Translations under genes and position numbers: made by a program
Assembly (NCBI GenBank): GCA_002245135.1
Contig: NGBS01000881.1
Coordinates: 1-64,000 of the forward strand
Direction of reading: 5' to 3'
DNA from: Proteromonas lacertae
Taxonomy: Eukaryota
DNA length: 64,000 nucleotides
Shown here: one piece after another, positions 3,474 to 21,561 of the stretch
Numbering within the stretch: position 1 is the first letter of the stretch
Layout: each line of letters opens with the position of its first letter
Notes under the pieces: model-generated
The model's database searches: none
What the model was told of the DNA's origin: nothing
Seen by the model: only the letters and a program-made list of their open reading frames with translations

Positions 3474-4263
3474 TTAATTAAATAAATGGTTAGGTGTTGG
3501 TAAATTATATTCTTCCATAATTGCATTGTTATTATTTTGAACAGTATTAATATTAGGAGGAATATAATACGTCTGTTGTTGTGGAATATAATAATACACT
3601 TGCTGAGGCTGTTGTTGTTGCTGCATTTGCTCAATATTACTACTTTTATCGTTTTTATTAAGTAGATTCTCATCAATATCAGTATTCTTTTTGTTAATAT
3701 ACTTTGTATATTTATATGATAAATATACTACTACTACTATAACGATCAACAAAAATATTACTGAAGCAGCAATTATTATTCCTGTTAAGTTGGTATTTGA
3801 AGAATCACTGTAGAATGGAGTAGTTCTTTGTTGAATTTTACTAATTCTCTTACCACTTATAATTGCCACAACCAAAATAGTTTGGATTAACATATAACAT
3901 ATAGAAATTATCAATATAAATTCCATTACAATCTAAAAGGTATGAATCCTTGGTATTATTAAAATTTGTTTTAGTAATTTCTACATTTGACATTGTACAT
4001 ACAAGTTTACTGATCTTTTTCTTTAATTCATTACACTCGTCTTTATCTGGAAAATTAATTAAACCATAAACATTATATGCGCCATCCGACCGTTCAAAAT
4101 TTAAATTGTCTAATATCATAAAACTAGAACCATGATCTTTATATTTCTCTTCTATAACTAAATAATATATATTAATTATACCATCATCATTTAATTTGTC
4201 GATTTCTTTATCTGGAGAGACAAATGATAAACACAGCAAGAAAGAAAAGAAAAAGAAATTCAT
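3474..4263 (-). CDS. Single-pass membrane protein with signal peptide and Gln/Pro/Tyr-rich cytoplasmic tail (ORFs 3850-4263 and 3474-3926 joined by a short intron or frameshift)
   Basis: N-terminal MNFFFFSFLLCLSF; TM GIIIAASVIFLLIVIVVVVYL followed by basic residues; tail QQQQQPQQVYYYIP. Confidence 0.7.
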
Positions 4264-4298: not shown

Positions 4299-4436
4299 AT
4301 GTCTTTAATAGCTTATTTGATGCTAATATATTATTCATTCGGATATAAATCTAATCAAGTTCATAGTGTTAGTGAAAGAATGATAGAGAGTATAGATTAT
4401 TAAGATTATTAATTCTTAAATAGATTTTAATTCATC
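4299..4436 (+). pseudogene. 5' part (signal-peptide exon, 34-nt intron 4390-4423, start of exon 2) of the host membrane-protein gene interrupted by the Maverick-like element
   Basis: ATG at 4299 gives MSLIAYLMLIYYSFG... After splicing GT4390-AG4423 and removing the element plus one TSD copy, the frame reads ...MIENFNSSHLK directly into MGKRQ at 19270. Confidence 0.8.
4431..4436 (+). repeat. Left target-site duplication TTCATC
   Basis: Same hexamer directly follows the right TIR at 19254-19259. Confidence 0.88.
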
Positions 4437-4618
4437 ATATATATAATAGAGGAAAAGAAAAACCATGGATAGTTTTAAAATAAACAATTTACAGTAAAAT
4501 CAATGTTTTTAGTTACATTTTATAAACAATTTATATACAATTTGTAAACAATTTTACTAATTTGTAGTCAATTTATGCTGATTTGTAGTCAATTTTAATC
4601 GATTAAACTCTCCAATTT
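4437..4618 (+). repeat. Left terminal inverted repeat
   Basis: ATATATATAATAGAGGAAAAGAAAAACCATGGATAG...GTCAATTTTAATCGATTAAACTCTCCAATTT is the reverse complement, with scattered mismatches, of 19075-19253. Contains ~21-bp internal subrepeats (TTTGTAAACAATTTTACTAA). Confidence 0.93.
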
Positions 4619-4698
4619 TTAAATCATTCTATATATATCATCCGTAAGGTTTTCTGTAGAGATGACTACCCTGCTGGGGGGTAGAACAGCTCACTACA

Positions 4699-4734
4699 TC
4701 TAGAGGTTCACTAAAATCTAGAGGTTCACTAAAA
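4699..4734 (+). repeat. 18-bp tandem repeat x2 (TCTAGAGGTTCACTAAAA) just inside the left TIR
   Basis: Direct reading of 4699-4734. Confidence 0.85.
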
Positions 4735-4985
4735 AATTCTAAAAACTCTATAATTGATTCATCTCACTATAAATCTGTAGAGATGATTAATATACATATT
4801 TTTTTTATATTTTTTTTAATATATTTTGTTAATAATAAAAGATACATCAAAAACATCAAGAAATTCTCAAATGAATCATGATTCATTAAATAATATAATA
4901 ATTTTGATACATAATTGATTTTGCATCTAGAGTTCATTCAGCATTTTCCTGACATTTTCATAAAAAAAATTAATTTTAAAAAATA

Positions 4986-5781
4986 ATGAGTCATCAAGTG
5001 ATATATTTATCAGACACTGATATTGATAGTGATAGTGATAGTAATAGTACTCAAAGTGATAAAGACTTTGAAAATCGATTAAAAAACATCAGTAGCATAC
5101 CTAATTATAAAGTTAGGGATATATGTACCAAATGTGCATTAATGGATCAGTCTAAAGGTATTAAAAGACGTAGAATCAGTATAATTTATTACTCTGATAT
5201 ATATATATAATTTTATTAGGTGCACCAGTAACAGGTCGTCCTTTTAATCCATTTAATCCATATCGATTATATATCAAAATCGATAATCCTAATGATGAAC
5301 CTCCAAAAGCAGAAGAAAAATCACCGATGTATATTTTATATTATTTATATATATATATATTTATTTATAGTTATTCACCAACAACACCAACTGATCATGT
5401 TAATGATTTAATCAATTTAACAGTAGGTGATGAACATCGTGAATCAATGTATACTTTATATATATATTTATTATTTATAGATATTCACCAGTACCACCAC
5501 CATCTTCATCTGATACCTTAACCTACGAAGAAATCAAAAAGCTTCGTAATGAAAGCTTAGTAGGTAAAAGGATCAGAGATGGTAGAAGAAGAGCCAAGGC
5601 AGAAAGAGAAGAGCTCAATTTCAAAGTAGCTAGTGACATGTCACTAGCTATGGACCTCCAGCGTTATTACGACACAATGTTCAAAAAACAAGAGTTAGAA
5701 GAAAAGATGATGAAGAAGCACAGATTAAATCCTAAAGTGTTAAAGAGTATCATCAAGAAGGTATTAAAAGATAAAAACTAA
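4986..5781 (+). CDS. Element-encoded hypothetical protein (226 aa), four exons: 4986-5178, 5220-5328, 5371-5448, 5481-5781
   Basis: Three GT-AG AT-rich introns (41, 42 and 32 nt) give a continuous 681-nt frame ending in TAA. Acidic N-terminus, one CxxC, Pro-rich middle and basic helical C-terminus. Confidence 0.8.
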
Positions 5782-5792
5782 TTAGAAAAAGT

Positions 5793-6431
5793 TGTTGTTC
5801 CCCGTATGGCGGAAATCCCCGTATGGCGGAAATCTATATTGCAGAATGATTCAATCAAAACTAATATGATATTCATGATGTTCGGAGTTAGTTATTAACA
5901 AATATATAGTTAGTTTGTCATATGACCTACATCTGTGATATACTTTTTTATGAACTTCATTATTATCAATATTAAACTAATTTTTGTATATTTTCTATTT
6001 TAATGTATCAGTCACTACTACAGTCTAAAATACATTATCTGATATGAATAGAATACAATAATTTTAATGTTAAGGTAGTAAAAAAGGAAATTAAAGAGTA
6101 GGCTTGAGCGAGGCTTGAACTTATTTTTTCTTTTTTCTTTTTTAACCTCCTTAACATTAAAAATAGTGAATTCTATTCATATCAGATAATGTATTTTAGA
6201 CTGTAGTAGTGACTGATACATTATAATAGAAAATATACAAAAATTAGTTTAATATTGATAATAATGAAGTTCATAAAAAAGTATATCACAGATGTAGGTC
6301 ATATGACAAACTAATTATATATTTGTTAATAACTAACTCCGAACATCATGAATATCATATTAGTTTTGATTGAATCATTCTGCAATATAGATTTCCGCCA
6401 TACGGGGATTTCCGCCATACGGGGAACAACA
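5793..6431. mobile_element. Non-autonomous foldback/MITE element with TGTTG...CAACA ends and 5-bp TSD AAAGT, nested in the Maverick-like element
   Basis: Arms 5793-~6075 and ~6149-6431 are near-perfect reverse complements. AAAGT at 5788-5792 and 6432-6436. Each arm carries a subterminal 17-bp tandem CCCCGTATGGCGGAAAT x2. No ORF. Confidence 0.88.
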
Positions 6432-6629
6432 AAAGTAATGTTATTATTAACACTTTTTACTATTGATTGAATTGTTTTTTGTTATTTCTTTTTTTCTATT
6501 TAAAATAAATAATAATAACATAATCCAATAAAATAAACGAAAATATCAAGTGTTTTTCAACACTATAATTTTCGATAAGATTTTCATTATGAATTTTCTT
6601 TTCATTATTTTTTTTATAAAAAAAGAAAA

Positions 6630-7082
6630 ATGAATTCAAGTGAAGAAAAGTATTGTAATCGATGTAAACATATTAAACCTATAAATGACTTTATGAATGA
6701 AAGAGGTGAAATATCAATTCTTTGTAATAGATGTAAAGAATATAGGAGATATTATCAGACAAAATATAGAAGTAAAAAACAGAATGAAATTAGAAGCATA
6801 TCAGTTGATGCTGATGATAAATTTAAATGTCGTTCTTGTGCTCGTTTCTTTAAAAATAAGTATAGATCAAAAGAAATTGCATTATGTAAAGTGTGTTTTA
6901 AATTCCTATTAAAATACTATAAAAATAGAGATAAATATTTAGGTAAACAAGTATATAGAAATGGTAAAATAAGATGTTTTATATGTAGAAAAATGAAATC
7001 TAAGTTAAAAATACATAAGATTAATATATGTAAGAAATGTATAAGACATCATGAACATAAACTAGAAAAGAAACAAATATAA
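6630..7082 (+). CDS. Basic multi-Cys4 zinc-finger protein (family A; paralogue of 17439-18059 and 18464-18886)
   Basis: Six CxxC motifs; CNRCKHIKPINDF...LCNRCKEYRR, FKCRSC...LCKVCFKF and RCFICRK...ICKKC align with the paralogues. Confidence 0.8.
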   Translation: MNSSEEKYCNRCKHIKPINDFMNERGEISILCNRCKEYRRYYQTKYRSKKQNEIRSISVDADDKFKCRSCARFFKNKYRSKEIALCKVCFKFLLKYYKNRDKYLGKQVYRNGKIRCFICRKMKSKLKIHKINICKKCIRHHEHKLEKKQI

Positions 7083-7424
7083 TAATCATAAAAAATGATA
7101 AATATATATATTATATCATTGTTTTATTCGGGTTATTCTTACAAAATATAAGAGTATTAAGTGCATTTATATATATATATATATATATATGATGAATAAA
7201 TCAACAAATACATCAATAATGAATTCATTGAAAGATGTATCAAGTACAATAAATTCACTTAAAAATGAGATTTATATAGTTTTGATTTTTTAGTTAATCA
7301 TATATAAAGATTATATTTGATGATATTTTAAATGGATTATACTCAACTATGTATGATTAACAAAAATACATAATATAAAGTCAAAACTCGATAGAAGAAT
7401 AAAGTAGTATTAAAAATATGATGA

Positions 7425-10400
7425 TTAATCATTTTTATGTGTTATAATAATCATGTTTTTTAATGTTAATATATTTTCTTTTTTGTATCCATATGGCACT
7501 GTATTGTAATTATCTAAGAATAATCTCTTATCATCATAATATGTTAATCCTGTTTTGTTTTGAAATGTTGTATATACATTATGATGAATTGATTTAATTT
7601 GATAAACTTCATATTTTTGTGTATCTTTAATACCATTTACAAAATCATTATATACATCATAAGTAATTTTTCTTGATACTTTTATGTTTATTCCTTTACA
7701 TCTATTATCTGTTGTATTTTTTTGATTTTCATCATTTACGCATTCTTTTTCATATATATAACACTTTGATTTTAGTCCTATAAACTTTGTTATAACATAT
7801 AGGTTTTTATTATTCTTATCCTGCTCTTCAAATTTTAATCGATTCAATGTACCTGGATGAACTGCTCTATGTATATCTAACTTATAATTATCTAAATAGG
7901 GATTTTTTAAATTACTTCCATCAATCCAATTATTAAATATAGGATCTTCCAAATCTCTAAATATATCTTCAGTTTCGACAGAAAATAATAGACTATCAGT
8001 ATCAGTCATACATAATGTCAACTTATTTGATCCATATTTTTTATCTAATACATCATACCAATATTTCTGCATTTTTAGTTTTGATAACTCTAGAATAACC
8101 ATGCCAATTTGTATAGGCTTATTAATTACATATGCTTTTTTATAAAAGTGAGCTATACGTAAGTCTCCTTCAATAATTATAAAGTCTTTAAACCATGGAT
8201 CACTTGCAGCATTAATCATTTGATCTTCATTAGTAATTAAAGAAATGTTACTTCTCTTTTCAACACGTTCCATAAATTTACCGTACAAACTATTCATTAA
8301 TTTCTTTATATAGTCTGCAGTAGTATTTTGATTGTTTTCTTTTGCTTTTACTCTTTTTTCTACCATTGTATTAATATATTTACCCATATATAGACCTTCA
8401 GTAAATCTCATTATTCTATGTACTTTACTAACTTTATAGCCATGTTCAACTGCAAACTTCAAATTTTGATAGTGTATTACATACTTTTCTTTAGGATATA
8501 AATCAGTTATTAATTTTTCAGTACAATGATAAGTCCCTCTTTCTTTATTTATAATTCCTAAAATTTCGGCTCTTTCAGTTTGTAAGTCGGATAACCATTC
8601 TTTAGGTATTTTCTTCCTTTCAGGTAATAATGGGTATTCTTTAAACTTGTCTTGTAGTTCTATAGGTAATTCTATATCTACTTCTAATATATATCCATAA
8701 TCATTATTTGTAAGTCTGTCTTCATCCATTTCTTCATAATAAGGTAAATCAAGTATAGATTCAAATGATATAGATTCTGGTTCAATAAACTCAAAATCTT
8801 TTAAAGGCATTTTGCAAGATGCCATAACTGAGGGATATAAGGAATTATAATCTTGATATAGTAAATACTTATTTCGCAGAGATTTATCATAATTCTTCAT
8901 AAACTTATTATTAGCTTCTTCTTTACGTTTTCCAATGTATGATAAACCACCATATAAGCCTTTTAAAATAAAATCATAATAACTAGGTTCACAGAACAGT
9001 TGCAGTTCCACATCTGTTACATGCAAGAATAAATCAAGTGATAAACTTGGTAAAGATATATACCAGCATGGATCAATATTAAATGTATTAAATATATTTT
9101 CTCTAAAATCATTAAAAACTGATTGCAATATATAAACATCAATTTGTAGATAAAACAAATTGTATTCTCTTATGTTTTTGAAATTGAATATTTCATTTAC
9201 TTCCATAGCAAATCTATATTCTTCTGGTTTTATTGATTCACCACTTAATTTTGATGTAAAGTCATTTATTGAAAGATCACTAAATTTTTCATCAAATGAT
9301 TCAAGGGATGTCATATGCTCATATGGGAAATAATTCTTTTGAAGTAGATACTTTTCAATTATTTCATCATTAATTTGTTTTCCATTATAATATTTAAAAT
9401 TATCATATATACTTTTGAATTTTATTCTTTTATCATTATTTAATTCTGCTGTGATTTTTAGATCATTTGTTAAATTTGCTAATGAACCAGATAAAAATAA
9501 ATAACTGTCAATGAATATTAAATTTTTATATTCAATGCACTTATAATTTTCATCTGTGTTAGGAATTATATTTATTACAGTTTTACTTTCATTTGCTATC
9601 TTTGCTAATTCTCTGATTATAAAATGTTGATCATACTTCATTGCATTATGAGCAATTACTGGTATTTTTAAATTTTTTATATCTATATTTAACTTTTCCT
9701 TAGAACAAATTGAAGCAATATAGTTACCAGTGAAATGATCATGATGTAAAACCTTTATATGATCAATATTATTAAATTCTTTACTACAAAAATCACATTT
9801 GTTTTTCTGATTATGTATATCTAATGTGACAGGGTTCTTATCATATAGTTTAGGATTAGCTAGTCTGTAGTTATACACCATTAATATTTGATTGTAAATG
9901 TTTATAATATCATCTACAAATTCTTTTTTAATATTATGATCATAATTTGATTTACTCTTAATTATTGTGCAACATTCAATATCAGGAATTTTACTATCAA
10001 CATATATACAATAAGAGTATAATTGATGTCTAGACATAATTGATTTTTCTGTTTTAGTCAACTCTCTTTTATCAATTTCCACATCTGTATTAGTTTTATC
10101 ATCAATATTGTCATTCTTATATCTTTTCATATTTAATTCATTTTCATATGGTTGAAAATATGTTTCTGTATCATAGTATAATGTTACAGGAATCATTTGT
10201 AAATGTGTCCAATGCTTAAATTTAATTGTTGATCTATTTGTATCATGTATACTAGGAAATAATCATAATACATTTTCTTTATCTTGACAATCATGATTAA
10301 CGTGAGTGATATACATATTTAAATCATAGATATAGAATAAACAGTATGGACATACATAAATTAAATTTCTTGATTTTGCATTTATCATTCTTCTAAATAA

Positions 10401-11597
10401 ATCATCTAAAGAGCTTATAGCTACATAATGTGAACCATAATCATTCTTTAATAGTAACAGGTTGACTATTCTATATTTTAATTCTTTACTCTGTTTGGAT
10501 AGATGAATGGGAATAAATGTTTCTTTATTATTATCATTTCTATCTATATCTATGTAAAATATATTTACATTCAATTGATTTCTTTTTTCAAATTCATTTA
10601 TTGATTTATAATCAGTTGCATCTACTGGATAATTAAGCATGTTCCATTCATGTTTCTTTTCAAATGATATGTAGTTTTCAATATGATCTTTGTTATATTT
10701 AAATTTACAACTATATAATGCTGTTAAAACTGCCCACTTAAAGCATTGATTGTCTTCATTCATTAGATTAATAAAGCATTTATATCCTTGATATTTAGGA
10801 GGTAATGGAATAAAGCAACTGCCACGAATTACTCTAAACTTTGTAATATATATTTCAACCGTATTAACTCTAAGAAAAGATAAACCACTTTGTGGATGAT
10901 TTGAATCTTGTTCTTCAGATATTTGATTAAAAATACTCTCTAATATTTGAGTAATTTCTACTTTGCTACTAAACTTTGTTATTTGACATATTCGAGATCT
11001 ACTGTATATAGATATTTCATCTTCTTCACTTTTAGATTCGTCAGGTGTATATATTGATCTAACATTGATGAAAAATTTAATCATTTGCATATCATTTGCC
11101 AAACTTTGTAACGTATCAACAATATCGTAGTTTTTAATAAAATCTGAGTAACATTCTTGAGGTGTTATATATGTTTTATTAAATTGATATAATAATTTTC
11201 TTGTTACTCCTTCTGATGATTTTTGTGATTCTAATGAATTTCTTATTCTGTTGCTAATATTTTGACTTGGTTTAGGAATAGAAGTTTTCATTAATCCTCC
11301 ATATATATTATAAGTATTATCATTATTAATGCTTCTTTTTTTGCTTATTTGAGATGTTACTTGATTTAATGAAGTTGATGATATTTTTCTTTTATTAATG
11401 CTTGTTTCTTGATGATTTAAAACAATTGTTTGGGCTAGAGGAGGTGGAGGTTGTTGTTGAATTACTTCACTATCATTACAACTGTTACCACTATGATGAT
11501 GATAATGATGTTTTTTATGATGCTTTCTTTTCTTTTCATTTAAAGTTGTTTTTATTATTTTCAAAAATGCCTTTAATAACTTTTTTTCTTTTCCCAT
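7425..11597 (-). CDS. polB: Protein-primed family B DNA polymerase of Polinton/Maverick type (~1390 codons) with N-terminal terminal-protein/vOTU-like region; one in-frame TGA at 10263-10265
   Basis: Exo motifs YYDTET, IAHNAMKYD, FIDSYLFL and YLQIDV. Polymerase motifs DYNSLYPSVM, KKLMNSLYGKF, TDTDSL, KSKCY, KGI and DDKR. The N-terminal ORF has the Polinton PolB motifs GSCFIPLP, INLMNEDNQCFKWAV and NLLLL...HYVAI. The two ORFs are in the same frame with 22 open codons between them. Confidence 0.95.
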
Positions 11598-11776
11598 ATT
11601 GCATATGAATATCGTTAAATATAAAAGAAATATAAAAAAATAAGATCAAAATAATTTATAATATATGATTGGTTATAGATTTTAATTGGTTAAACATATG
11701 TTTTAAATTCTTTTCTATTTTCATTTTTCTGATAGAATATAACTAACTTTATAATATCATTTCTCTTTCATAAATA

Positions 11777-12529
11777 ATGAGTAATGAAACACCTTACGAA
11801 GCTGCACCTGATGTTGTATTATGTGAATACTTAAAAAGTCCAAAACTATGTAACAAATGGATTATAAAAGGAACAGTAGAGAAGATTGAAGTTCATAAGA
11901 ATGAAAAAAGTCAATATGTTTTAATAACATTTGCTCATGATTTAAATCATCAAGTTGTTATAAATAATGGAAAAGATTGTGAAACTTATTCTGCGGATGA
12001 AGTTAAATATGTTTTAAAACAAATTTATGATAGAAAAGAGAATGATTTTATAGAAAAAATCATTCGCAATTATTTGATTAGTGTTGGTTGTCGTGAGTCT
12101 GAGTATGGTATTAAATACTTTCATAATTTCAACAGTATCATGGTTTGGAGCAACAGTAATTATTTAATACCTCCAAATGTTGATAAAGGTTCTAAAATTG
12201 CAGTTAGTGTAGTTGATTATCAGATTTCTATTAAAAATAATGGTCAGTCTAACTTTGTTAATCATCGTGTTTGTAGTGACATAGTTAGTTATGATGAGAA
12301 TCCTGATTTAGTAACAACAATAAGAAAGTCTAATGAGAAGAAAGCTAAGATAGTTATGAAAGATAAAGATTCTTTTCATACACCTGTTAGAGTTAAAAAG
12401 AATAACATAAAAAAGAATGATATTATAACTACTCATCAACCTTTTAAAAAGACTATAACTGGTGTAACAAATGTATCTAAAGTAATTAACTACATAAAAG
12501 ATGATGATATATCTGATGATGAACCATAA
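11777..12529 (+). CDS. Hypothetical protein, possible OB-fold ssDNA-binding protein; paralogue of 15914-16687
   Basis: 250-aa ORF divergent from polB. LKSPKLCNKWIIKGTVEKI matches LRPSSLNRKWVVKGVIKNI, and further motifs are shared (FIEKII/FVRDIV; IKYFHNFNSIMVW/IKIKYGFDTFILW). Confidence 0.7.
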   Translation: MSNETPYEAAPDVVLCEYLKSPKLCNKWIIKGTVEKIEVHKNEKSQYVLITFAHDLNHQVVINNGKDCETYSADEVKYVLKQIYDRKENDFIEKIIRNYLISVGCRESEYGIKYFHNFNSIMVWSNSNYLIPPNVDKGSKIAVSVVDYQISIKNNGQSNFVNHRVCSDIVSYDENPDLVTTIRKSNEKKAKIVMKDKDSFHTPVRVKKNNIKKNDIITTHQPFKKTITGVTNVSKVINYIKDDDISDDEP

Positions 12530-12667
12530 AAGTCTTAATAATAGCATTAATATTATTCTAATTATTGTGCTCTTAATTACATAAATAAAAATAAATTGTT
12601 TATATTGGGTATATATAGCAAACATATATATATGTATAATTAATATCAATAATTAATTATTTCATTA

Positions 12668-13115
12668 TTAATTAAGTTTTACAACTTTATTATTCGAAGA
12701 ATCATAAGTATTATTCTTAAGTTCTTCATATTTTCTCTTTTTCTTATCTCTGCATTCATTACATGATTTATAGTGAACGCCATTAGGTTTTATATCAAAA
12801 CAATCAACTGATTTATTCTTATTGCATGTTGAGCAGTGAAGTATATTATCTTCTTCTAATGTAGATTCTTCTTGTTCATGGTTCAACACATTTAGCATTC
12901 CATTCAGGATCATCTTCATATTCTTCTATTACTGAATAAATACCATCCAATAAATCTTTAAAAACACCTAATACACATGTTTTAATTAACATTATATTAG
13001 AATCATTATTTTCTTCTAACGTTGCAGGTAGTGCATTCACAACTTCTTTCTCAGTGTCATTTGTGCTAGGCACATCTGAATTACTTAGTGACATTCTGTT
13101 TTTTAAAATACTCAA
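12668..13115 (-). CDS. Small acidic protein with a C-terminal Cys4 zinc finger; two overlapping ORFs probably joined across a 1-nt frameshift near 12878
   Basis: ORF 12876-13115 overlaps ORF 12668-12919, which has CSTCNKNKSVDCF...YKSCNECRDK, the same unit as the other element zinc fingers. Confidence 0.55.
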
Positions 13116-13283
13116 AATCTCAAAGAAAACTATAAATAATAAAATAAAGACAAAATTGTTAACATAAACATATGAATACTATTTGCTAATAATATACCCC
13201 ACCAAAAAGAAGAAGAAGAAATAATAACTCTTTTATATTTTTAATTTATATCAATCTTATTTTTATGCAATAACATTATAATT

Positions 13284-13685
13284 CTAATATTTAATACCAT
13301 TTAATATTATTTTGTTCATAATGATGTTAAGAATTGGATGTCTTTCTAAATGGGTCTTTCCTTCTTTTGATTTTAACCATTCAATATAATTGTTATAATT
13401 AGGGAATACTCTCTTTTCATCTCTTACATATACGCTTGGTTTATAATCATGTATCATTAAAGTATATCTTATTTCATCATATTGTGGAACTAAAGTTTGA
13501 TGACACAAATAACGTTTTTCATTACATTCTTTTGATACTGATTTATTAGAGGTGTCAGGTATTGAGCTTATTTTATGATTAAAATAGAGATAAAATCTAC
13601 AATTATTGCATATATGTTTATCTAAAAAGTCATCATTATTACTGAATGATTTAGATAAAAAATTAAAGTCAATTGAATTTGACAT
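13284..13685 (-). CDS. Element hypothetical protein (133 aa)
   Basis: ATG-initiated ORF co-oriented with neighbours, with a CNNC motif and further Cys/His residues. Confidence 0.6.
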   Translation of the reverse strand: MSNSIDFNFLSKSFSNNDDFLDKHICNNCRFYLYFNHKISSIPDTSNKSVSKECNEKRYLCHQTLVPQYDEIRYTLMIHDYKPSVYVRDEKRVFPNYNNYIEWLKSKEGKTHLERHPILNIIMNKIILNGIKY

Positions 13686-13909
13686 AATGATATATAATAT
13701 AAATTTTGCAAAAGAATATGATAGAAAAATATGAACTGAATAATTAATATAACTTAATTAACATCAGATTCACTTCACACTCTATCCCATTCTCTAAAAG
13801 CTAAAGCTTCTAATCAAATCATCACATATATTATGATATATTGATTATTTAAACCATCTTAATTGTTACATATACATTCTCATCATGTTATTTCTATCAT
13901 TACATATAT

Positions 13910-14149
13910 CTAAATATTTAATTCATTATAATATAATTGATTTAATAATTCTTGTAAATTCATCAAAAAAATATTACTATTGGGTGAATTTGTTTTTATT
14001 CCATATTTACATATATCATTGATCCATTTATACAAATTTAAATATAAATTCGATACTTGTTCCTCTAATATATTACAAGTTATATTTTTAATGCTAATAT
14101 CAATAGGTGATATATTATCATATTCATATATTTTTATCAATTTGTTCAT
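13910..14149 (-). CDS. Small element hypothetical protein (79 aa)
   Basis: Short ATG ORF within a run of minus-strand genes; no motif recognised. Confidence 0.35.
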   Translation of the reverse strand: MNKLIKIYEYDNISPIDISIKNITCNILEEQVSNLYLNLYKWINDICKYGIKTNSPNSNIFLMNLQELLNQLYYNELNI

Positions 14150-14238
14150 GATATTAGAATGAAGTATATTTGTCCCTATTTAAAGAAAAAAGAAATATTA
14201 ATTACTAAGATAATTGAGTAAATTATATGTAACTGTTA

Positions 14239-15012
14239 CTAATTTCTTTTAACCACTTTATACTGATTTAAATATCTTATATTTTTATCTTTTCTTCTAC
14301 ATTTTATACATTTTGAAAATAACTCATTAGTTTTGTTATATATACCCATTTCTTCATAATTTCTTATTTCACCACAATAAGAACACCTAGTCATTCCTTC
14401 TGGAAGTATTTCAGGTAATGTTCTGCCATCAAGTTTGTTTTTATTATACTTCTTATTAGTATTATATTTATTTGCTTTAGAAATTCTGCAAGTTGGACAA
14501 GTTGAATAAAGCTTGTTTGCTTTCATATTAATGCCCATTATACTAATATGATATATCATATGACAAGAAGAACATGATGCATATTCATTAGTATTGTTAT
14601 TTCCATTGATTATATTATTATGTAATTGATTTGCAATACTTTCATTTTTTATTCTTTCTGTCTTTGTCTTGTAATATTTTCTGTTACGGTTTTGACAAGC
14701 TTTACATATTTTACCATATTCACCATTTTGTCTGACAGCTATTTGATGTTTACTTACTATTTTATTACAGCTTGAACATTTAATACAGTTTTCATTATTA
14801 TGAGCATTTATTTTCAAAGATTCATAGATTATTTGATTTGGTTTATTTACAACATTATACTGATAATTATGAAAAGCACAATCTTTGTCAATATGCATAT
14901 CTTTAATAATGTCTCTATCACTATCATTGTCACTACTACTATCACTACTACTATCACTATTCTTAATACAGTCTTTCAACAGTATATATAATTCATTTAT
15001 TATGCTTTTCAT
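14239..15012 (-). CDS. Multi-Cys4 zinc-finger protein (family B, three repeats)
   Basis: Repeats of CxxC-x7-(E/I)MG-x(8-10)-(Y/F)xxCxxCR, e.g. CSYCGEIRNYEEMGIYNKTNELFSKCIKCR. Confidence 0.8.
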   Translation of the reverse strand: MKSIINELYILLKDCIKNSDSSSDSSSDNDSDRDIIKDMHIDKDCAFHNYQYNVVNKPNQIIYESLKINAHNNENCIKCSSCNKIVSKHQIAVRQNGEYGKICKACQNRNRKYYKTKTERIKNESIANQLHNNIINGNNNTNEYASCSSCHMIYHISIMGINMKANKLYSTCPTCRISKANKYNTNKKYNKNKLDGRTLPEILPEGMTRCSYCGEIRNYEEMGIYNKTNELFSKCIKCRRKDKNIRYLNQYKVVKRN

Positions 15013-15111
15013 TATTTAACTGTTTTAGTAATTTATTAATAATATAAGAAATTTGAAAATAAAAATATTTCCCTAAAATATAATAAATAAACAATAGAAT
15101 AATAATATAAC

Positions 15112-15756
15112 TTAAATATTAATTATATTATTAAGTAAATCATATATTTCATTTAAAAAACTGTCACTAAATACAATTAATAATTCATTATCTCTAGTTA
15201 TTCTTGGTATAATTTTTTCTTCTTCAATTACATTCATTTTATTTATAATATTTGTAACATATTTATAACATTTTATGCACATACTGCCTTTTATATTTTT
15301 TCGTTTACAATTATGCATCTCATCACATAACAGACATTTTGATTTAATATAGTCTTCTTTTTTATCTATTTTTCTTCCATTCTTTTTATTCATCTTAATA
15401 CTATTCTTTGATTTATCTCTACACTCTATGCAGCATTGATAAACATTTCCTGTAACTTTATTTATACCCATTTCTTCATAAAGTTTTGATTTTTTGCATA
15501 AGATACATTTTGCATAACCTGGTTCTATTTTATCTATTTTATATTTAAGGTTAACGTTAGATTTATCTCTACATTTAGGGCAAATATTATAATATTTGTT
15601 CCATCTATTCTTACCCATTTCCCAATATTGATATAGTGCTTTACATCTTGAGCATTTGATATATTCATCTGCTTTTGTATAGTAGGGTACTTCAATACCA
15701 TAAAATTCATTATTAATTGAAATTATATCATTATTATTGACATTTTGAGAACTCAT
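15112..15756 (-). CDS. Multi-Cys4 zinc-finger protein (family B; tandem paralogue of 14239-15012)
   Basis: CSRCKALYQYWEMGKNRWNKYYNICPKCRDK and CILCKKSKLYEEMGINKVTGNVYQCCIECRDK. Confidence 0.8.
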   Translation of the reverse strand: MSSQNVNNNDIISINNEFYGIEVPYYTKADEYIKCSRCKALYQYWEMGKNRWNKYYNICPKCRDKSNVNLKYKIDKIEPGYAKCILCKKSKLYEEMGINKVTGNVYQCCIECRDKSKNSIKMNKKNGRKIDKKEDYIKSKCLLCDEMHNCKRKNIKGSMCIKCYKYVTNIINKMNVIEEEKIIPRITRDNELLIVFSDSFLNEIYDLLNNIINI

Positions 15757-15913
15757 TATTAATTCACTTAGAATATAAAAAATAAAACATGCAGATATTT
15801 AGAATAACAATACATCGATTTGCACATTGATTATTGGTTGTTTGCAATTTAGATATTAAAAATATAAATAATAAATCATTTACTTTTTTCTCTATATTAT
15901 ACAATTAATTAAT

Positions 15914-16687
15914 ATGCCTGATATGATAACTCATATATTAAGACCGAGTAGTTTAAATAGAAAATGGGTGGTAAAAGGTGTTATAAAAAACATTATTGAA
16001 GATGAAGATGATGATAAATATACTATTGCTATTAGAGTTGATAAAGACTTTAGACTTATTTATTGGAATTTATCTGAGTATGTTGAACTTAAAAGAAACC
16101 TATATGTCAAAGAGTTAGAAGATACTGAAGATTATCATGGAAATTATTTTGTAAGAGATATTGTTTGTGATTGGTTTAAAGGTCAAGGTAAAAGTGTTCC
16201 AGCAACAATCAAAATAAAATATGGATTTGATACTTTTATATTATGGAAAGATCAATTATCTTTTCATGATATCAAAGGTGAAATGAGTATTTATGATCGA
16301 ATATACTATGAATTAATTGATACATATTTAGAAGTAAAACATAATGAAGTTAAAGATATAGCATATGTATATGTAAAACACAAATTATTTGAAGATAATT
16401 TCTCTGCTTATGATGATGATAAATATTTACTTGAAGATTTAAAATATTATCCAAAAGATATTGAAGAAATAATTGAAGATACATGTATAAAATGTGGAAG
16501 AAACATGAAAGGGGATGAATCCTATTCACCTCAATATGCTTCTGTCAAATATGGCAAAGGTTCATTAAATAAAAGACATAAAAGAAAATTTGATTTAAAA
16601 AAGTTATCTAAAATTAATAAAAAGTTTAAAAAAGATCATGAAAATGATGATATTCTATTTCATTTAGATGATTGGGAACTTGATTAA
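15914..16687 (+). CDS. Hypothetical protein, possible OB-fold; paralogue of 11777-12529
   Basis: Shared N-terminal KW(V/I)(V/I)KG motif; also a CIKC motif, a basic patch and an acidic C-terminus (DDWELD). Confidence 0.7.
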   Translation: MPDMITHILRPSSLNRKWVVKGVIKNIIEDEDDDKYTIAIRVDKDFRLIYWNLSEYVELKRNLYVKELEDTEDYHGNYFVRDIVCDWFKGQGKSVPATIKIKYGFDTFILWKDQLSFHDIKGEMSIYDRIYYELIDTYLEVKHNEVKDIAYVYVKHKLFEDNFSAYDDDKYLLEDLKYYPKDIEEIIEDTCIKCGRNMKGDESYSPQYASVKYGKGSLNKRHKRKFDLKKLSKINKKFKKDHENDDILFHLDDWELD

Positions 16688-16823
16688 AACTATATTGGAT
16701 AATATAATACTAAAAAGTATAAACTGACTTTAAAATGTTATAAATAATATTTATTTTGGGAAATGAAAATAACTATTAGCACAACATAATAATAATAATA
16801 AGACTAATTAATTGAAACATTAA

Positions 16824-17207
16824 TTAATGATATAATCCATACATTACTTTATCCAAGTCCAATCCAAATTTTTCTTTTATATAATTTTTTGCTTTTAAAT
16901 CATGCATTGCAATATATCTATCCATTAGTGCATCAAATTCTTCTGGATCCTCACTATAAATGAATCCTTTATCTAATCCATTTCTTACACGTATATTATG
17001 TCTTCTTCTTTTTTCTCTTATTTTTTCATCTTTAATATGTTTCAACATTTCATTATATCTCTGTAGATCAGCTGTTGATTTAGATTGCACTTGTAGCTCG
17101 TTTGACTGAGAAAATATTTTTCTTTTAAGTGATTCAAATATTGTGTAAAACCATAATAAAGGCTTATAATATGATTCAAGTGAAGATATATAATTTGGAT
17201 TATGCAT
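16824..17207 (-). CDS. Element hypothetical basic helical protein (likely start ATG 17207)
   Basis: ORF track starts at a TTG; first ATG gives MHNPNYISS. Arg-rich KIREKRRRH segment. Confidence 0.6.
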   Translation of the reverse strand: MHNPNYISSLESYYKPLLWFYTIFESLKRKIFSQSNELQVQSKSTADLQRYNEMLKHIKDEKIREKRRRHNIRVRNGLDKGFIYSEDPEEFDALMDRYIAMHDLKAKNYIKEKFGLDLDKVMYGLYH

Positions 17208-17438
17208 TTTTGATACAATAGAATAAATAAAATTGAAGAAAATATAGAATAATACTTTTTCTGTATTATACAAATGCTTCAAAAATGATTTTACCCAATA
17301 AAATAAAACATAGTATGTATTATTTTTTCATTCTCTATATTATTCTCTATATATATGATTTTACTCAACCATAGTCAATCAACATCTTGTATCTACAGTA
17401 TTTAATTTATAAGATGAATTAATAGATCATATAGGAGG

Positions 17439-18047
17439 TTAATTGCATAAATCATCAATGTCATCATTTTCTCCACATTTTGATTCACTCTGATCTATCT
17501 GAAGAGTGAATTTTTGTTGATTACTATCTTTTATATTTGATATATTTTTAGAAGAATTATTCATGTTATTAGATTCTTTTTTGATAGTTTTTTTACTAAG
17601 TGTATATAAATAATGTTTTACACATTTTTTACACTTATTAGTATATTCCATCTTTGATTTGTGTTTTATTTTTCTGCAGATATAACATCTTTGTTCACCA
17701 CCACTTAGTTCTTCATTAAAATGTCTTTTTCTATTATATAAATATTTTTGTTGAAATTTAAAACATATTTTACATAGATCTTTTATAACAAATGAATTAT
17801 ATTTATCATTAAAACATCCATCACAATTAACACATCTAAATTTATCAGATAAATCATTTTTTATTTTTCTATTATTAGAAAAATATATTCTTTTATATTT
17901 TCTGCATTTGCTACACATGTGGTATTCTTTACCTTTATCATTCTTAAAATCATTCATAGGAAAATTATATTTGCATCTTGAACATTTTTTTTCTCTTTTA
18001 ACTAAATTATATGGTAATGTATTTGAATTATTTTCAAGATTTGGCAT
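17439..18047 (-). CDS. Multi-Cys4 zinc-finger protein (family A)
   Basis: CSRCKYNFPMNDF...MCSKCRKYKR, FRCVNC...LCKICFKF and RCYICRK...KCKKC are colinear with 6630-7082. First ATG at 18047. Confidence 0.8.
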   Translation of the reverse strand: MPNLENNSNTLPYNLVKREKKCSRCKYNFPMNDFKNDKGKEYHMCSKCRKYKRIYFSNNRKIKNDLSDKFRCVNCDGCFNDKYNSFVIKDLCKICFKFQQKYLYNRKRHFNEELSGGEQRCYICRKIKHKSKMEYTNKCKKCVKHYLYTLSKKTIKKESNNMNNSSKNISNIKDSNQQKFTLQIDQSESKCGENDDIDDLCN

Positions 18048-18112
18048 TCTTTTCTTCAATATCTAAAAACAGCAAGAAAATTAAAAATGTAAATTTAATA
18101 GAAATTTAATTG

Positions 18113-18354
18113 TAAACTCATACATACACACAATTACAATGCATCAAAGTAATGAAGAATATATGGTATAAACATATATAAATGATATTATGAGAAATTA
18201 ATTTTCTTACTAAATATTGAAATTTTTCTACTTCATCAAAATATTAAATCTAGTTCTTTTGACTTGATATTTTCAATAATAAACTCATACATATACACAA
18301 TTACAATGCATCAAAGTAATGAAGAATATATGGTATAAACATATATAAATGATA
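18113..18354 (+). repeat. 75-bp direct repeat x2 (18113-18187 and 18280-18354)
   Basis: TAAACTCATACATA(C/T)ACA...CATATATAAATGATA, one visible mismatch, in the intergenic region between two family-A genes. Confidence 0.88.
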
Positions 18355-18463
18355 CTAGATATTAAAGTAGAAATGATGAATTATTCATATAAATATATAT
18401 ACACCTAAATTCTAATATAGTAAGATTTACCCATATAAACATTAATTATATATTTAACAAAAA

Positions 18464-18958
18464 TTATAATGCATGTTTATTTAAAGTTTGATGATATTTT
18501 TTCACACAAATATTACACATGTTTTGATATGGCATTATTTCTTTCTTTCTTAAATGTCCACAATGATAACATCTCATCTCTTTATCATTAGTTAACACTT
18601 CATTCTTATACAATTTTTTATATATTTTTATGCTTAATTTAAATCTAAAACATCCTTTACATAAGAATGTCATAACTTTATCATTTAATATCTCTTTACC
18701 TAAGTACTCATTATTATAAAACATTAAACAACATCTGCACTGAAATACCTCATGCATTATATTTAATATCGATTTCTTTTTCTTTAATATAGTCTTATAA
18801 GACCTGCAATATTCTCTGCAATGGTTACACTGATGAAAATATTCATTTGTTTTAGGATTTTTAGTAAAATCAGTTAAACAAAACATTTTCTTACACTTAC
18901 CACACTTAGCAAATCTTGTTCTATCAATTTCATCAGTAGAAAAGTAGATAAATAGAGT
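18464..18958 (-). CDS. Multi-Cys4 zinc-finger protein (family A); open frame extends upstream of ATG 18886 and contains the first CxxC
   Basis: Upstream frame reads ...DEIDRTRFAKCGKCKK-MFCLTDF...HQCNHCREY. Remaining motifs are colinear with the paralogues. Confidence 0.7.
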   Translation of the reverse strand, partial: TLFIYFSTDEIDRTRFAKCGKCKKMFCLTDFTKNPKTNEYFHQCNHCREYCRSYKTILKKKKSILNIMHEVFQCRCCLMFYNNEYLGKEILNDKVMTFLCKGCFRFKLSIKIYKKLYKNEVLTNDKEMRCYHCGHLRKKEIMPYQNMCNICVKKYHQTLNKHAL

Positions 18959-19074
18959 GTGTTCCTATCTGTTCCTACCCCCGCCGTAGCTATCTGTAGA
19001 GAAAAAACTTATAGAGAGAGAGAGAGTGATACATTCACTTTAGCAAGTTAATATTTTAACTGTTTTAAAATATT

Positions 19075-19253
19075 AAATTGGATAGTTTAATCGATTAAAA
19101 TTGACTACAAATCAGCAAAATTGTTTACAAAATTAGTAAAATTGTTTACAAAATTAGTAAAATTGTTTATAAAATGTGAACAAAAACATTGATTTTACTA
19201 TAAATTGTTTATTTTTAAACTATCCATGGTTTTTCTTATCCTCTATTATATAT
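19075..19253 (-). repeat. Right terminal inverted repeat
   Basis: Reverse complement of 4437-4618; ends ...CTCTATTATATAT; includes tandem AAAATTGTTTACAAAATTAGT subrepeats. Confidence 0.93.
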
Positions 19254-19259
19254 TTCATC
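19254..19259 (+). repeat. Right target-site duplication TTCATC
   Basis: Identical to 4431-4436. Confidence 0.88.
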
Positions 19260-20275
19260 ACATTTAAAAATGGGAAAAAGACAGATACTGAAAGAAAATC
19301 TATATTCTAATTTTCGATATAAGTTAGATCTTTCAGATTTATATTTCTCGTTTGATAAATCATCTTTATTAAAAGCATATGGTACTATATATCCAGTTCC
19401 TCAGAGTAATTGTGAATCAGATACAAATATTAAAACAATTTCTTGCATTGTTTCAAAAATCAGTATTTCTGCTGATGGATTTGGTGGAACAAATCCATTA
19501 ACTTCATTTGACTGTAGCGGTACTATTATAAATGCTGAAGCAAAATTTGCATACCCAAATTTTTTTTCTTGTGCTATTTTTGATAGTAATGATAATATGG
19601 TTTCTTTTGGTTCAATAAAAACAAATTATTATGATAAAGACACAGATAATGATCATCATAATGGTGACAGTGATGATCATGGTGGTAGTGGAGGTAAATC
19701 GTTTGCTTCTGGTGGATATTATATAGTATTCATAGTAATAGCAATAATTATGTGCAGTATTGCTTGTTGTTGTTATAGACGATTTCATAAAAGGAATAAA
19801 GTGAATAGTGAAGTTCAAATGGCTTCTCAATCGATAGTAGGACAGAATCAACAACAACAACCAATAGTAAATGCAATTCCTGTTCAACCTTATCAACCAA
19901 ATGATGATAAGAATAATAATGGCAATGTTCCAGTTCAAGGAATTCCGTATAATCCACAACAACAGCCTTATTATCCTAATCCTAATGGTGAACAACCACA
20001 ACCACAGCTATTTTATCCAAATAGTCAACAACTACAACAACCATATTATTCCCAATCCCAATGATCTACAACAGCCACAAGTGATTTATTATTATATTCC
20101 ATCAGCAGCTGTTGGAACAAGTGAACTACCAATAGGGGTTGATCCTCTGCCAATTGGAGTTCAAACTCCACCAATTTCATCTTCAAATTTAGTTCAGAAT
20201 AATATTGATCCAAATAATTCATCGCATAATAATTATTATCTTCCTTCTTCACAAACAACTCCACCAATACAATAA
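19260..20275 (+). pseudogene. 3' part of the interrupted host single-pass membrane protein (Cys-rich TM end, Gln/Pro/Tyr-rich tail); 1-nt frameshift near 20050
   Basis: TM YYIVFIVIAIIMCSIACCCYRR. The YYPNPN repeat continues in the next frame (NPNDLQQPQVIYYYIP), matching the tail of the divergent gene 3474-4263. Confidence 0.75.
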
Positions 20276-20430: not shown

Positions 20431-21561
20431 ATGGAAGATGAAGAAGGGATTGCTCAAGCAGCAAAGCTAATAAAAGAGTGTGATATACTTTTATTTGTTA
20501 CTGGAGCAGGTTGGTCCGCTGATTCAAAGCTGCCTGTGTATAAAGACGTTGCAAGTATAAATATGAAGTATGAGTTTATAGAAAATGAAATTTATGCGAA
20601 TCAGAATATAACTTATTATGATTTATGTAAAGAAGAAATGGTATTTCATATTTTTAATTATAGATTAGTTTATAGATAAACCTGACATATATTGGGGATT
20701 TTGGGGTAGTTGCTATGATGATTATCACAATGCTATACTACATCATGGATATGATATTTTGAAAGAGTGGAATGAAAATGTATTTCAAAAGAAAGATAAA
20801 TCAAAAAAGAATTAGGAAAATATATAACCAATATTTGGAAAGAAAAAATGAATAAGAATAGAAGACATTATGATAAATTATACTATCATTATAAAGAAGA
20901 TTATGAATCTTTTTCATCTCCTTTATTTTTATTAACATCTAATGTTGATCATCATTTTTATAATTATGGATTTGATTCGAAGTTAATTTATGAAATACAC
21001 GGTAACTGTGATTATATTCAATGTGGTAATGAAAAATGTACAAATATGAAATCGTGGTTAATACAACCACCAAATATTCGGTTTAATGTTCCAAAAGATA
21101 CATTATTATATAATGTAAATTACAGTGAAGATAATAAAATATTATTTTGTCAAAAATGTGGTAATTTAGGTAGACCAAATGTAATGATGTTCGATGATAC
21201 CACTTATTGTCATAATACAATTGCGTATAAAACATATAAGCTGTGGGAGTTAGGTGTGGAAGAATTGATGAAAAACAATGATAATATTTCTGTTGTTATA
21301 TTAGAAATTGGTTGTGGAAATAGAGTTCCAACATTAAGAATGGAGAGTGAAGATATAATGGAATCTATTTTATCAAAAGAAGATGGATTTCAACCACAAT
21401 ACACTGATGATGGAAGATCAAGAATAAAAACAATAAGAGTGAATTTAGAAGAATGTTATTGTGATGATAATTGTGTAGATGGCAATTATTTGTGTATAAA
21501 AGACACAGCATTGCATTTTATGGAAAGAGTTGATTCATTACTCACAGATTGGAAGAAGTAG
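20431..21561 (+). CDS. Sirtuin (SIR2 family NAD-dependent deacylase); introns 20555-20581 and 20641-20668, probable homopolymer frameshift near 20805
   Basis: TGAGWSADSKLP, YWGFWG, TSNVDHHF, EIHGNCDYIQC, CQKCGNLGRPNVMMFDD and VILEIGCG. Confidence 0.88.

Follow-up and report, generated by a model that had tools for sequence, protein, structure and literature searches.

Structure of the element and its target site

We analysed a window of 64,000 nt from Proteromonas lacertae (contig NGBS01000881.1) and found an element of 14,817 bp at positions 4437-19253. It is an integrated, now broken, Polinton-derived element that retains a polymerase gene and two genes for predicted single-stranded DNA-binding proteins (SSBs). 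The features that define its ends, its target site and its replication genes are as follows.

4299-4436, + strand: 5' portion of a host gene predicted to encode a type-I membrane protein; it includes a hydrophobic N-terminus, the intron 4390-4423 and the beginning of exon 2
4431-4436, + strand: left target-site duplication (TSD), 6 bp (7 bp counting base 4437)
4437-4619, + strand: left terminal inverted repeat (TIR), with an (AT)n tip and an internal 11/21-nt tandem block
7425-11597, - strand: protein-primed DNA polymerase (pPolB), a single gene of 1,390 codons interrupted by an in-frame stop, PF03175 match
11777-12529, + strand: SSB-like protein 1 of 250 aa with a predicted OB fold and an acidic tail at its C-terminus, oriented divergently to pPolB
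15914-16687, + strand: SSB-like protein 2 of 257 aa, also with an acidic tail, oriented divergently to 15112-15756
19074-19253, - strand: right TIR
19254-19259, + strand: right TSD
19260-20064, + strand: 3' portion of the split host gene, encoding a transmembrane segment, a juxtamembrane stretch rich in Cys and a Pro/Gln-rich tail

A first-pass annotation of this DNA had proposed TIRs, a 6-bp TSD and a Polinton-type pPolB, and all three were recovered here. The TIRs (4439-4619 and 19074-19253) can be aligned over about 180 nt. Both tips consist of (AT)n, the left one having one (AT) unit more than the right, and mismatches counted outside the internal tandem block were 3/72 and 2/44. A 27-mer from the TIR occurs twice in the window and was absent from 100 shuffles. 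The TSD is an identical 6-mer at 4431-4436 and 19254-19259, with a background frequency of 0.001 per position. The following base matches too, and a duplication of 7 bp is equally valid.

Removing the element, one TSD copy and the 34-nt intron at 4390-4423 gave an open frame of 302 codons, running from the ATG at 4299 into the open reading frame (ORF) at 19270-20064. This frame closed when the join was moved by 1, 2 or 4 bases. The host frame is thus restored at the empty site, which shows that the element inserted exactly and split the gene of a predicted host membrane protein. The divergent neighbour of the split gene (3474-4263, - strand) encodes a similar transmembrane segment and Pro/Gln-rich tail, and may be a paralogue.

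The GC content is 23.5% within the element and 26.7% outside it, while GC at third codon positions and CpG depletion are host-like. Coding sequence occupies 72% of the element, and the largest gap (848 nt) contains a nested miniature inverted-repeat transposable element (MITE).

The polymerase gene is broken by a single stop codon

The pPolB assignment comes from an ORF of 923 aa that matches PF03175 in Pfam (E = 1.8e-27). The other ORFs had initially been described as all under ~260 aa, which overlooked a 444-aa ORF at 10263-11597. This ORF is in frame with the 923-aa ORF, and a single TGA (10263-10265) lies between them. It is the N-terminal third of the same pPolB gene. The read-through product of 1,390 residues aligns nearly full length with five unnamed proteins of 1,243-1,318 aa, all of which are continuous at the column of the TGA stop. 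The N-terminal part keeps a Cys and a His, which we take as the vOTU catalytic pair, and a zinc finger; the published domain order is TP-vOTU-Exo-palm, TP being the terminal protein (10.1101/2024.03.18.585575). The Exo I-III, Pol A-C and KxY motifs are intact.

We found that this pPolB deviates at 12 of the 204 columns that are invariant in the other clade members (relatives, 12-55), indicating that its decay is slight. Because 6.5% of random changes give stops, one stop fits a divergence of about 0.5-1%. The 1.75% divergence derived from the TIRs would predict 4.7 stops, and the probability of observing at most one is then 0.05. The stop may be an assembly error. Programmed readthrough or a natural split into two genes is disfavoured, since the five relatives are continuous at this position. 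An intron spanning the stop was rejected because every GT-AG span, counted by hand, either had a length not divisible by three or took out the zinc finger. An alternative genetic code was also rejected: TGA, TAA and TAG all end other ORFs, and host frames in the standard code reach 2,764 codons. The HNH-like insertion in pPolB was considered as an integrase substitute and dropped, as its second Cys pair is lost in the pPolB of the window and in two relatives (P0001 and P0006).

The polymerase belongs to a separate clade

A pPolB phylogeny had been suggested as a check on the element, and it placed the polymerase in a well-supported clade of its own. A quick IQ-TREE search used 43 rows after the short rows P0006, P0015, P0016 and P0019 had been dropped. 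FastTree used 191 rows from 212 candidates, of which 18 had no match and the same four short rows were dropped. In the IQ-TREE result, the pPolB groups with P0001-P0005 (SH-aLRT 100, stem 0.78); FastTree recovered the same clade plus P0061 (SH-like support 100). The clade thus consists of the window sequence and six unnamed public proteins with 41-86% identity. Long branches surround the clade in the tree, which leaves its sister group uncertain. Three clade members scored 786-991 bits in the 50% library and the next sequence 355 bits, among the best 150 of 12,165. The closest relative (65-86% identity) is represented by P0006 and P0061, which cover consecutive parts of the polymerase and both lie on one contig of 5,399 nt. 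This suggests that the pPolB of the closest relative is probably split too.

A metagenome scan with a narrow pPolB alignment gave a single distant locus (L001, 25%), and narrow pPolB, SSB and Cys4 alignments together with the MITE motif gave no relative in viral contigs. L001 (8,367 nt, 22% GC) encodes a 1,550-aa pPolB and has no rve integrase, A32 ATPase or capsid match in the available, possibly incomplete DNA. At L034:3631-6070, pPolB adjoins a helicase similar to parvovirus NS1, an arrangement known from bidnavirus-like genomes. Nothing useful came from searching PDB sequences with the pPolB and SSB profiles.

Two SSB-like genes accompany the polymerase

A distant paralogy links the ORFs at 11777 and 15914, which are 19% identical over 181 aa (E = 0.002). 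To predict the function of the former, we used several structure-based searches, all of which gave matches below the trust level. A model from six sequences was weak (pLDDT 47.7), and a single-sequence fold (pLDDT 33) was unusable. The best row in VIA was an OB-type barrel (Z 5.3, rmsd 3.0, 72 residues), in a list dominated by OB folds, with CTC1, SSB and PriB just under it. The top PDB row in Foldseek was PrgE (E = 0.016), an OB-fold protein, and several viral rows were named SSB (E = 0.007-0.02). In Atlas, an SSB cluster ranked second for a homologue of the ORF (0.81). No jelly-roll capsid was among the fold matches listed. Taken together, these searches suggest SSB as the likeliest function of the predicted protein, and they argue against a jelly roll in favour of an OB-like fold.

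The ORF at 11777 has four clusters of homologues with 59-70% identity, indicating that the combination of pPolB and SSB is not unique to this copy. The members of one cluster (P0057 and P0209-P0211) lie on 65 public contigs (43, 17, 3 and 2), none longer than 6,185 nt. An equally frequent close pPolB was not found, and the homologues may mark a small discrete replicon or segment. A genome-contig scan with the SSB alignment gave one further candidate (L038), which was rejected as chance; the match covers 52 residues, in a stop-filled frame around the seed word.

With its pPolB and SSB-like pair, the gene set resembles a clean replication module. The element could therefore be the replication segment of a bipartite Polinton-like virus, whose other segment, with the same TIRs, would encode integrase, ATPase, protease and capsids, and in which both segments would be packaged. 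Bidnaviruses with a Polinton-type pPolB are described as bipartite (PMC8502044). However, no second segment lies within the window and the searched literature yielded no bipartite or segmented Polinton, and we regard this explanation as improbable.

No integration or virion module was detected

To look for the remaining Polinton genes, we searched 118 stop-to-stop fragments of at least 34 aa against Pfam. Nothing but pPolB was above the curated cut-off. The fragments contained no rve, A32, capsid, protease or recombinase family, and no RNA polymerase, capping enzyme or helicase family. A Walker A motif was absent from all six frames of the element. These results agree with the first-pass annotation, which had listed integrase, recombinase, capsid, penton, ATPase and protease as missing.

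We also compared the element with 37 related pPolB loci. A tblastn search with their 580 ORFs gave no match in the element outside pPolB. Of 154 ORFs selected in 21 of the 37 loci, 150 were run through Pfam, and the rve, A32 and capsid proteins identified there were used to build profiles. Over all 37 loci, training loci included, these profiles detected rve in 22, A32 in 29 and capsid in 11. At least one of these module genes was present in 31/37 loci, a proportion biased upward by the selection of contigs with viral hallmark genes in IMG/VR, and in 21 of the 22 loci longer than 12 kb. The sole related locus above 12 kb with no rve, A32 or capsid match is L036 (12,881 nt).

The rve profile reached a best E value of 0.68 on the element, read through stops, and the A32 profile gave no match. 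As a positive control, held-out integrase fragments of 80 aa were detected in 9/9 trials (E <= 3e-9). Because profiles with positive controls gave nothing in the element, we conclude with good confidence that the integrase and the ATPase are absent. The capsid profiles also gave no match, but they are insensitive (11/37 related loci). Here the conclusion draws more on space, as 72% of the element is coding, the largest gap holds the MITE, and the longest non-polymerase ORF has 257 aa, compared with 399-625 aa for intact capsid ORFs in the related loci. With no free ORF above 257 aa, a major capsid gene is unlikely. Penton and maturation protease had neither a Pfam match nor a tblastn match from the 580 related ORFs, and no dedicated profile was used for them.

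Accessory genes

The remaining genes and repeats of the element are listed below.

4986-5781, + strand: spliced gene with 4 exons, predicted 226-aa Ser/Pro-rich protein with a basic C-terminus, no family
6630-7082, + strand: Cys4 family A, 150 aa, three CxxC-CxxC units
12668-13094, - strand: two overlapping ORFs in different frames, one of 72 aa (acidic) and one of 83 aa (one Cys4 unit, family B)
13284-13685, - strand: orphan ORF, 133 aa, no family above the cut-off
13910-14149, - strand: orphan ORF, 79 aa, no family
14239-15012, - strand: Cys4 family B, 257 aa, three units
15112-15756, - strand: Cys4 family B, 214 aa, three units
16824-17207, - strand: orphan ORF, 127 aa, Cys-free
17439-18047, - strand: Cys4 family A, 202 aa
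18105-18357, + strand: intergenic direct repeat, 2 x 86 nt, 94% identical, 167 nt apart
18464-18933, - strand: Cys4 family A

The cargo had been described as mostly zinc-finger genes, which overstates their share: genes with Cys4 units (CxxC-x8-25-CxxC) make up 6 of the 13 non-polymerase ORFs. They fall into two paralogue families, A (6630, 17439 and 18464, 31-42% identity) and B (14239, 15112 and 12668), and five of the six proteins are strongly basic. A Cys4-unit profile had no match in the related loci or the host flanks, and PHROGs and NCBIfam gave only weak Cys-rich matches. For the family A protein at 17439-18047, we found no homologue at E <= 0.001 among 44 candidates from 5.8 billion clusters. 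Rfam returned 0 matches.

The overlapping ORFs at 12668-13094 are probably one frameshifted gene with a break near 12880. In the gene at 18464-18933, the first CxxC precedes any ATG in its frame, and position 18933 has an ATG in another frame, which makes a frameshift near the 5' end probable. Together with the pPolB stop, these two probable frameshifts indicate that the copy is a young fossil. The first-pass annotation had called the cargo organised rather than decayed. This holds for the family, with its two pairs of divergent genes and its two families of Cys4 paralogues, but not for the copy, which carries one stop, two probable frameshifts and a nested MITE. The same annotation had missed the MITE (639 bp), the three-intron gene and the SSB-like pair, which makes for a fuller replication kit.

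The introns of the gene at 4986-5781 (5179-5219, 5329-5370 and 5449-5480) are AT-rich, begin and end with GT-AG and resemble the 19 introns of the host flanks. These host-like introns point to nuclear transcription. Only 3 further intron-like matches were found inside the element, and none joins large frames.

This gene structure bears on two further explanations. First, a capsid or integrase could be present and too divergent or spliced to detect, as in Trichomonas Mavericks and PgVV. Overlooked major capsid proteins have precedent (PMC10120064, PMC4028283), the capsid profiles match just 11/37 related loci, at least one gene of the element is spliced, and the analysis of the three orphans (79-133 aa), like that of the spliced protein, used sequence searches only. 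However, the non-polymerase ORFs of at most 257 aa fall well short of the related capsid ORFs (399-625 aa), the two ORFs of about 250 aa appear OB-like rather than jelly-roll, and the few further intron-like matches open no large frame. We therefore consider hidden genes very unlikely.

Second, a free linear plasmid, similar to pGKL or transpovirons, could have been captured by DNA repair in an integrase-free event. The lack of an integrase in the element would agree with this, and cytoplasmic linear plasmids arise from Polintons through loss of the virion module (10.1101/2024.03.18.585575). Yet both ends are complete, the TSD is exact and no host bases were lost. The spliceosomal introns and the lack of RNA polymerase, capping enzyme and helicase also speak against it, and we give this explanation hardly any weight.

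A nested MITE and the host flanks

The MITE lies between the spliced gene and the first Cys4 gene.

5788-5792, + strand: left TSD of the MITE, 5 bp
5793-6431, no strand: nested foldback MITE, 639 bp, ORF-free, TDD/Ginger2-like
6432-6436, + strand: right TSD of the MITE, 5 bp

Its arms have 298 nt with 9 mismatches and its ends are TGTTG...CAACA; it also carries 17-nt subterminal repeats. TDD/Ginger2 elements have TGTNR ends, with a 5-bp TSD in TDD-4 and TDD-5 and a TIR of 297 nt in TDD-5 (PMC2836005). The MITE is similar to them in its ends, its TSD and the length of its TIR (298 and 297 nt), but it has no transposase ORF, and it is placed by end structure alone. The presence of the MITE implies a family of integrase-like DNA transposases in the host lineage. 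As a non-coding element with TG...CA ends and a 5-bp TSD, it shows integrase-like enzymes at work in trans in this lineage.

The genes in the flanks are eukaryotic and encode TBC, DNAJC11, a DEAD helicase, He_PIG proteins and teneurin-type EGF proteins. The flank introns (19 pattern matches) are AT-rich and 28-58 nt long, and the stops are standard. Low-GC Blastocystis lineages, which the flank resembles in general features only, have longer and variable introns (PMC12129017). A spliced Sir2-family host gene (20431-21561) adjoins the insertion. Genes for very large proteins, predicted to be on the surface, are clustered at 25000-58600; putative Ig repeats (He_PIG) occur among them, as does a teneurin-type EGF protein. 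One host ORF in this region (26855-35149, 2,764 codons) contains three near-identical tandem units of 969 bp (29410-32200), which may have arisen by recent expansion of a repeat or may be an artefact of the assembly.

A proposed replication-only lineage that depends on a helper

We favour, with a probability of roughly 0.55, the reading that the element belongs to a replication-only, non-autonomous Polinton lineage and that this copy was likely inserted by an rve-type integrase supplied by a helper. The lineage has probably been without integration and virion modules for a long time, because old paralogues (19-42% identical) fill the space and there are no remnants of lost genes. The same two observations favour helper dependence, as does the finding that the pPolB and the SSB-like gene have close relatives of their own. 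A clean TSD in a host exon, combined with the lack of an integrase gene, fits an integrase that was supplied from elsewhere or has since been lost. One of two readings in the first-pass annotation was a capsid-less, self-replicating, linear-plasmid-like element integrated by a helper. The helper is consistent with the clean TSD, but the pPolB stop bars self-replication of this copy, and the introns point to the nucleus rather than to a cytoplasmic plasmid.

An intact member of the family would be excised or copied as a linear, TIR-ended molecule in the nucleus. Its pPolB and SSBs would carry out protein-primed strand displacement from the (AT)n tips, and the TP primer would be released by the vOTU domain. 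Short terminal repeats are of the kind used for slide-back priming. The genes would be transcribed by the host machinery, with removal of the spliceosomal introns, and the small basic Cys4 proteins may be nucleic-acid-binding regulators. A helper integrase would recognise the TIRs and return copies to the chromosomes with 6-bp duplications.

The main rival is that the element is a one-off fossil. In this case, a complete Polinton or MELD virus of about 20-25 kb integrated with an integrase of its own, which would explain the TSD, and lost its integrase and virion block through one or two deletions, either afterwards or not long before, and the Cys4 and SSB paralogues were accessory genes of the parent. 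It is the main rival for two reasons: we observed a single copy, itself in decay, and a Blastocystis MELD virus that is complete, with an Alpha-type PolB, an integrase and divergent virion genes, is in print (PMC8502044). The decay is evident from the pPolB stop, the two probable frameshifts, the TIR mismatches and the nested MITE; the closest relative (P0006 and P0061) is probably split too, and vertebrate Mavericks are mostly degraded (PMC8097293). On the other hand, the element has no remnant of integrase or ATPase, although integrase pieces of 80 aa are detectable, and no obvious deletion scar. The divergence of the TIRs and the MITE arms (about 1-2%) leaves little time for several deletions, and the three-intron gene suggests long nuclear residence. 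On balance we consider a one-off deletion unlikely, though it deserves more weight than the other alternatives.

Several points weigh against a helper-dependent lineage. The TIR 27-mer shows no second element in the window, and the clade relatives are known from proteins alone. Since virion and integrase genes often lie together (PMC8097293), a single deletion could take out all of them. The bias of IMG/VR overstates how usual a full gene set is among related loci, and the major-capsid profiles detected capsids in only 11/37. All evidence for the SSB assignment (pLDDT 47.7, Foldseek E of at least 0.0014, VIA Z 5.3, Atlas 0.81) is below trust level, and the family A Cys4 protein that has no homologue does not support a widespread, conserved cargo.

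Beyond this copy, we tentatively propose, as a possibility somewhat short of even odds, a nuclear replication-only Polinton lineage in gut protists. Its members would be long-lived satellites with pPolB, two SSBs, host-type introns and an expanded Cys4 cassette, and they would be parasites of resident Polinton viruses, using their integrase and perhaps their capsids. Such a lineage could define a recurring third state between virus and transposon.

Comparison with known elements

In its TIRs, its 6-bp TSD and its length, the element is similar to Polintons/Mavericks of 14-15 kb with a pfam03175 (Alpha or pPolB2-type) polymerase (PMC10748475, PMC8097293, 10.1101/2024.03.18.585575). These sources also describe the vOTU-type Cys/His, the zinc finger and the HNH-like insertion that its pPolB shares. 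However, no rve integrase, ATPase, protease or capsid was detected, and the element differs further in its (AT)n tips, SSB-like pair, six Cys4 genes, spliced gene and separate pPolB clade. Polinton ends are AG...CT.

The first-pass annotation had suggested that the element might be of an undescribed class, and it may be. Loss of the capsid as such is already in print, as nine Polintons that have no major capsid protein, protease or ATPase are described in PMC4028283. The element is similar to them in that the virion module is absent in concert. Polintons by definition encode an integrase (PMC5499653), and the capsid-less elements are classed as Polintons, whereas the element described here has no integrase either. 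Capsids that had been overlooked were later found (PMC10120064). The Blastocystis MELD virus and its rumen relatives (PMC8502044), compared here by their description, share an Alpha-type pPolB on a long branch and probably a similar host group, but they carry an integrase and divergent virion genes.

Cytoplasmic linear plasmids of the pGKL type and transpovirons are also capsid-less, integrase-less and TIR-ended, with a replicase of the TP-vOTU type. Unlike them, the element is integrated with a TSD, bears introns and has no transcription enzymes or helicase of its own. Plasmids of the pGKL type have their own RNA polymerase and capping enzyme and no spliceosomal introns. The accessible portions of PMC10748475, PMC8097293, PMC6431247, PMC5718144, PMC12220804 and 10.1101/2024.03.23.586382 contain no description of an integrated pPolB element that is without both integrase and virion genes; Repbase may list non-autonomous Polintons.

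Implications

A polymerase plus an integrase define Polintons. The reduced Polintons in print either keep the integrase (the capsid-less elements) or leave the chromosome (the cytoplasmic plasmids). If the favoured reading is true, a chromosomal family has kept replication without integration and packaging, which would mean that Polintons have satellites of their own. Such a family would be a living intermediate for the proposed route from Polintons to linear plasmids. Surveys based on capsids or integrases would then overlook a class of elements. The element also provides a candidate SSB, predicted from the fold models, for Polinton-type protein-primed replication. For the host, elements of this kind disrupt a predicted surface-protein gene.

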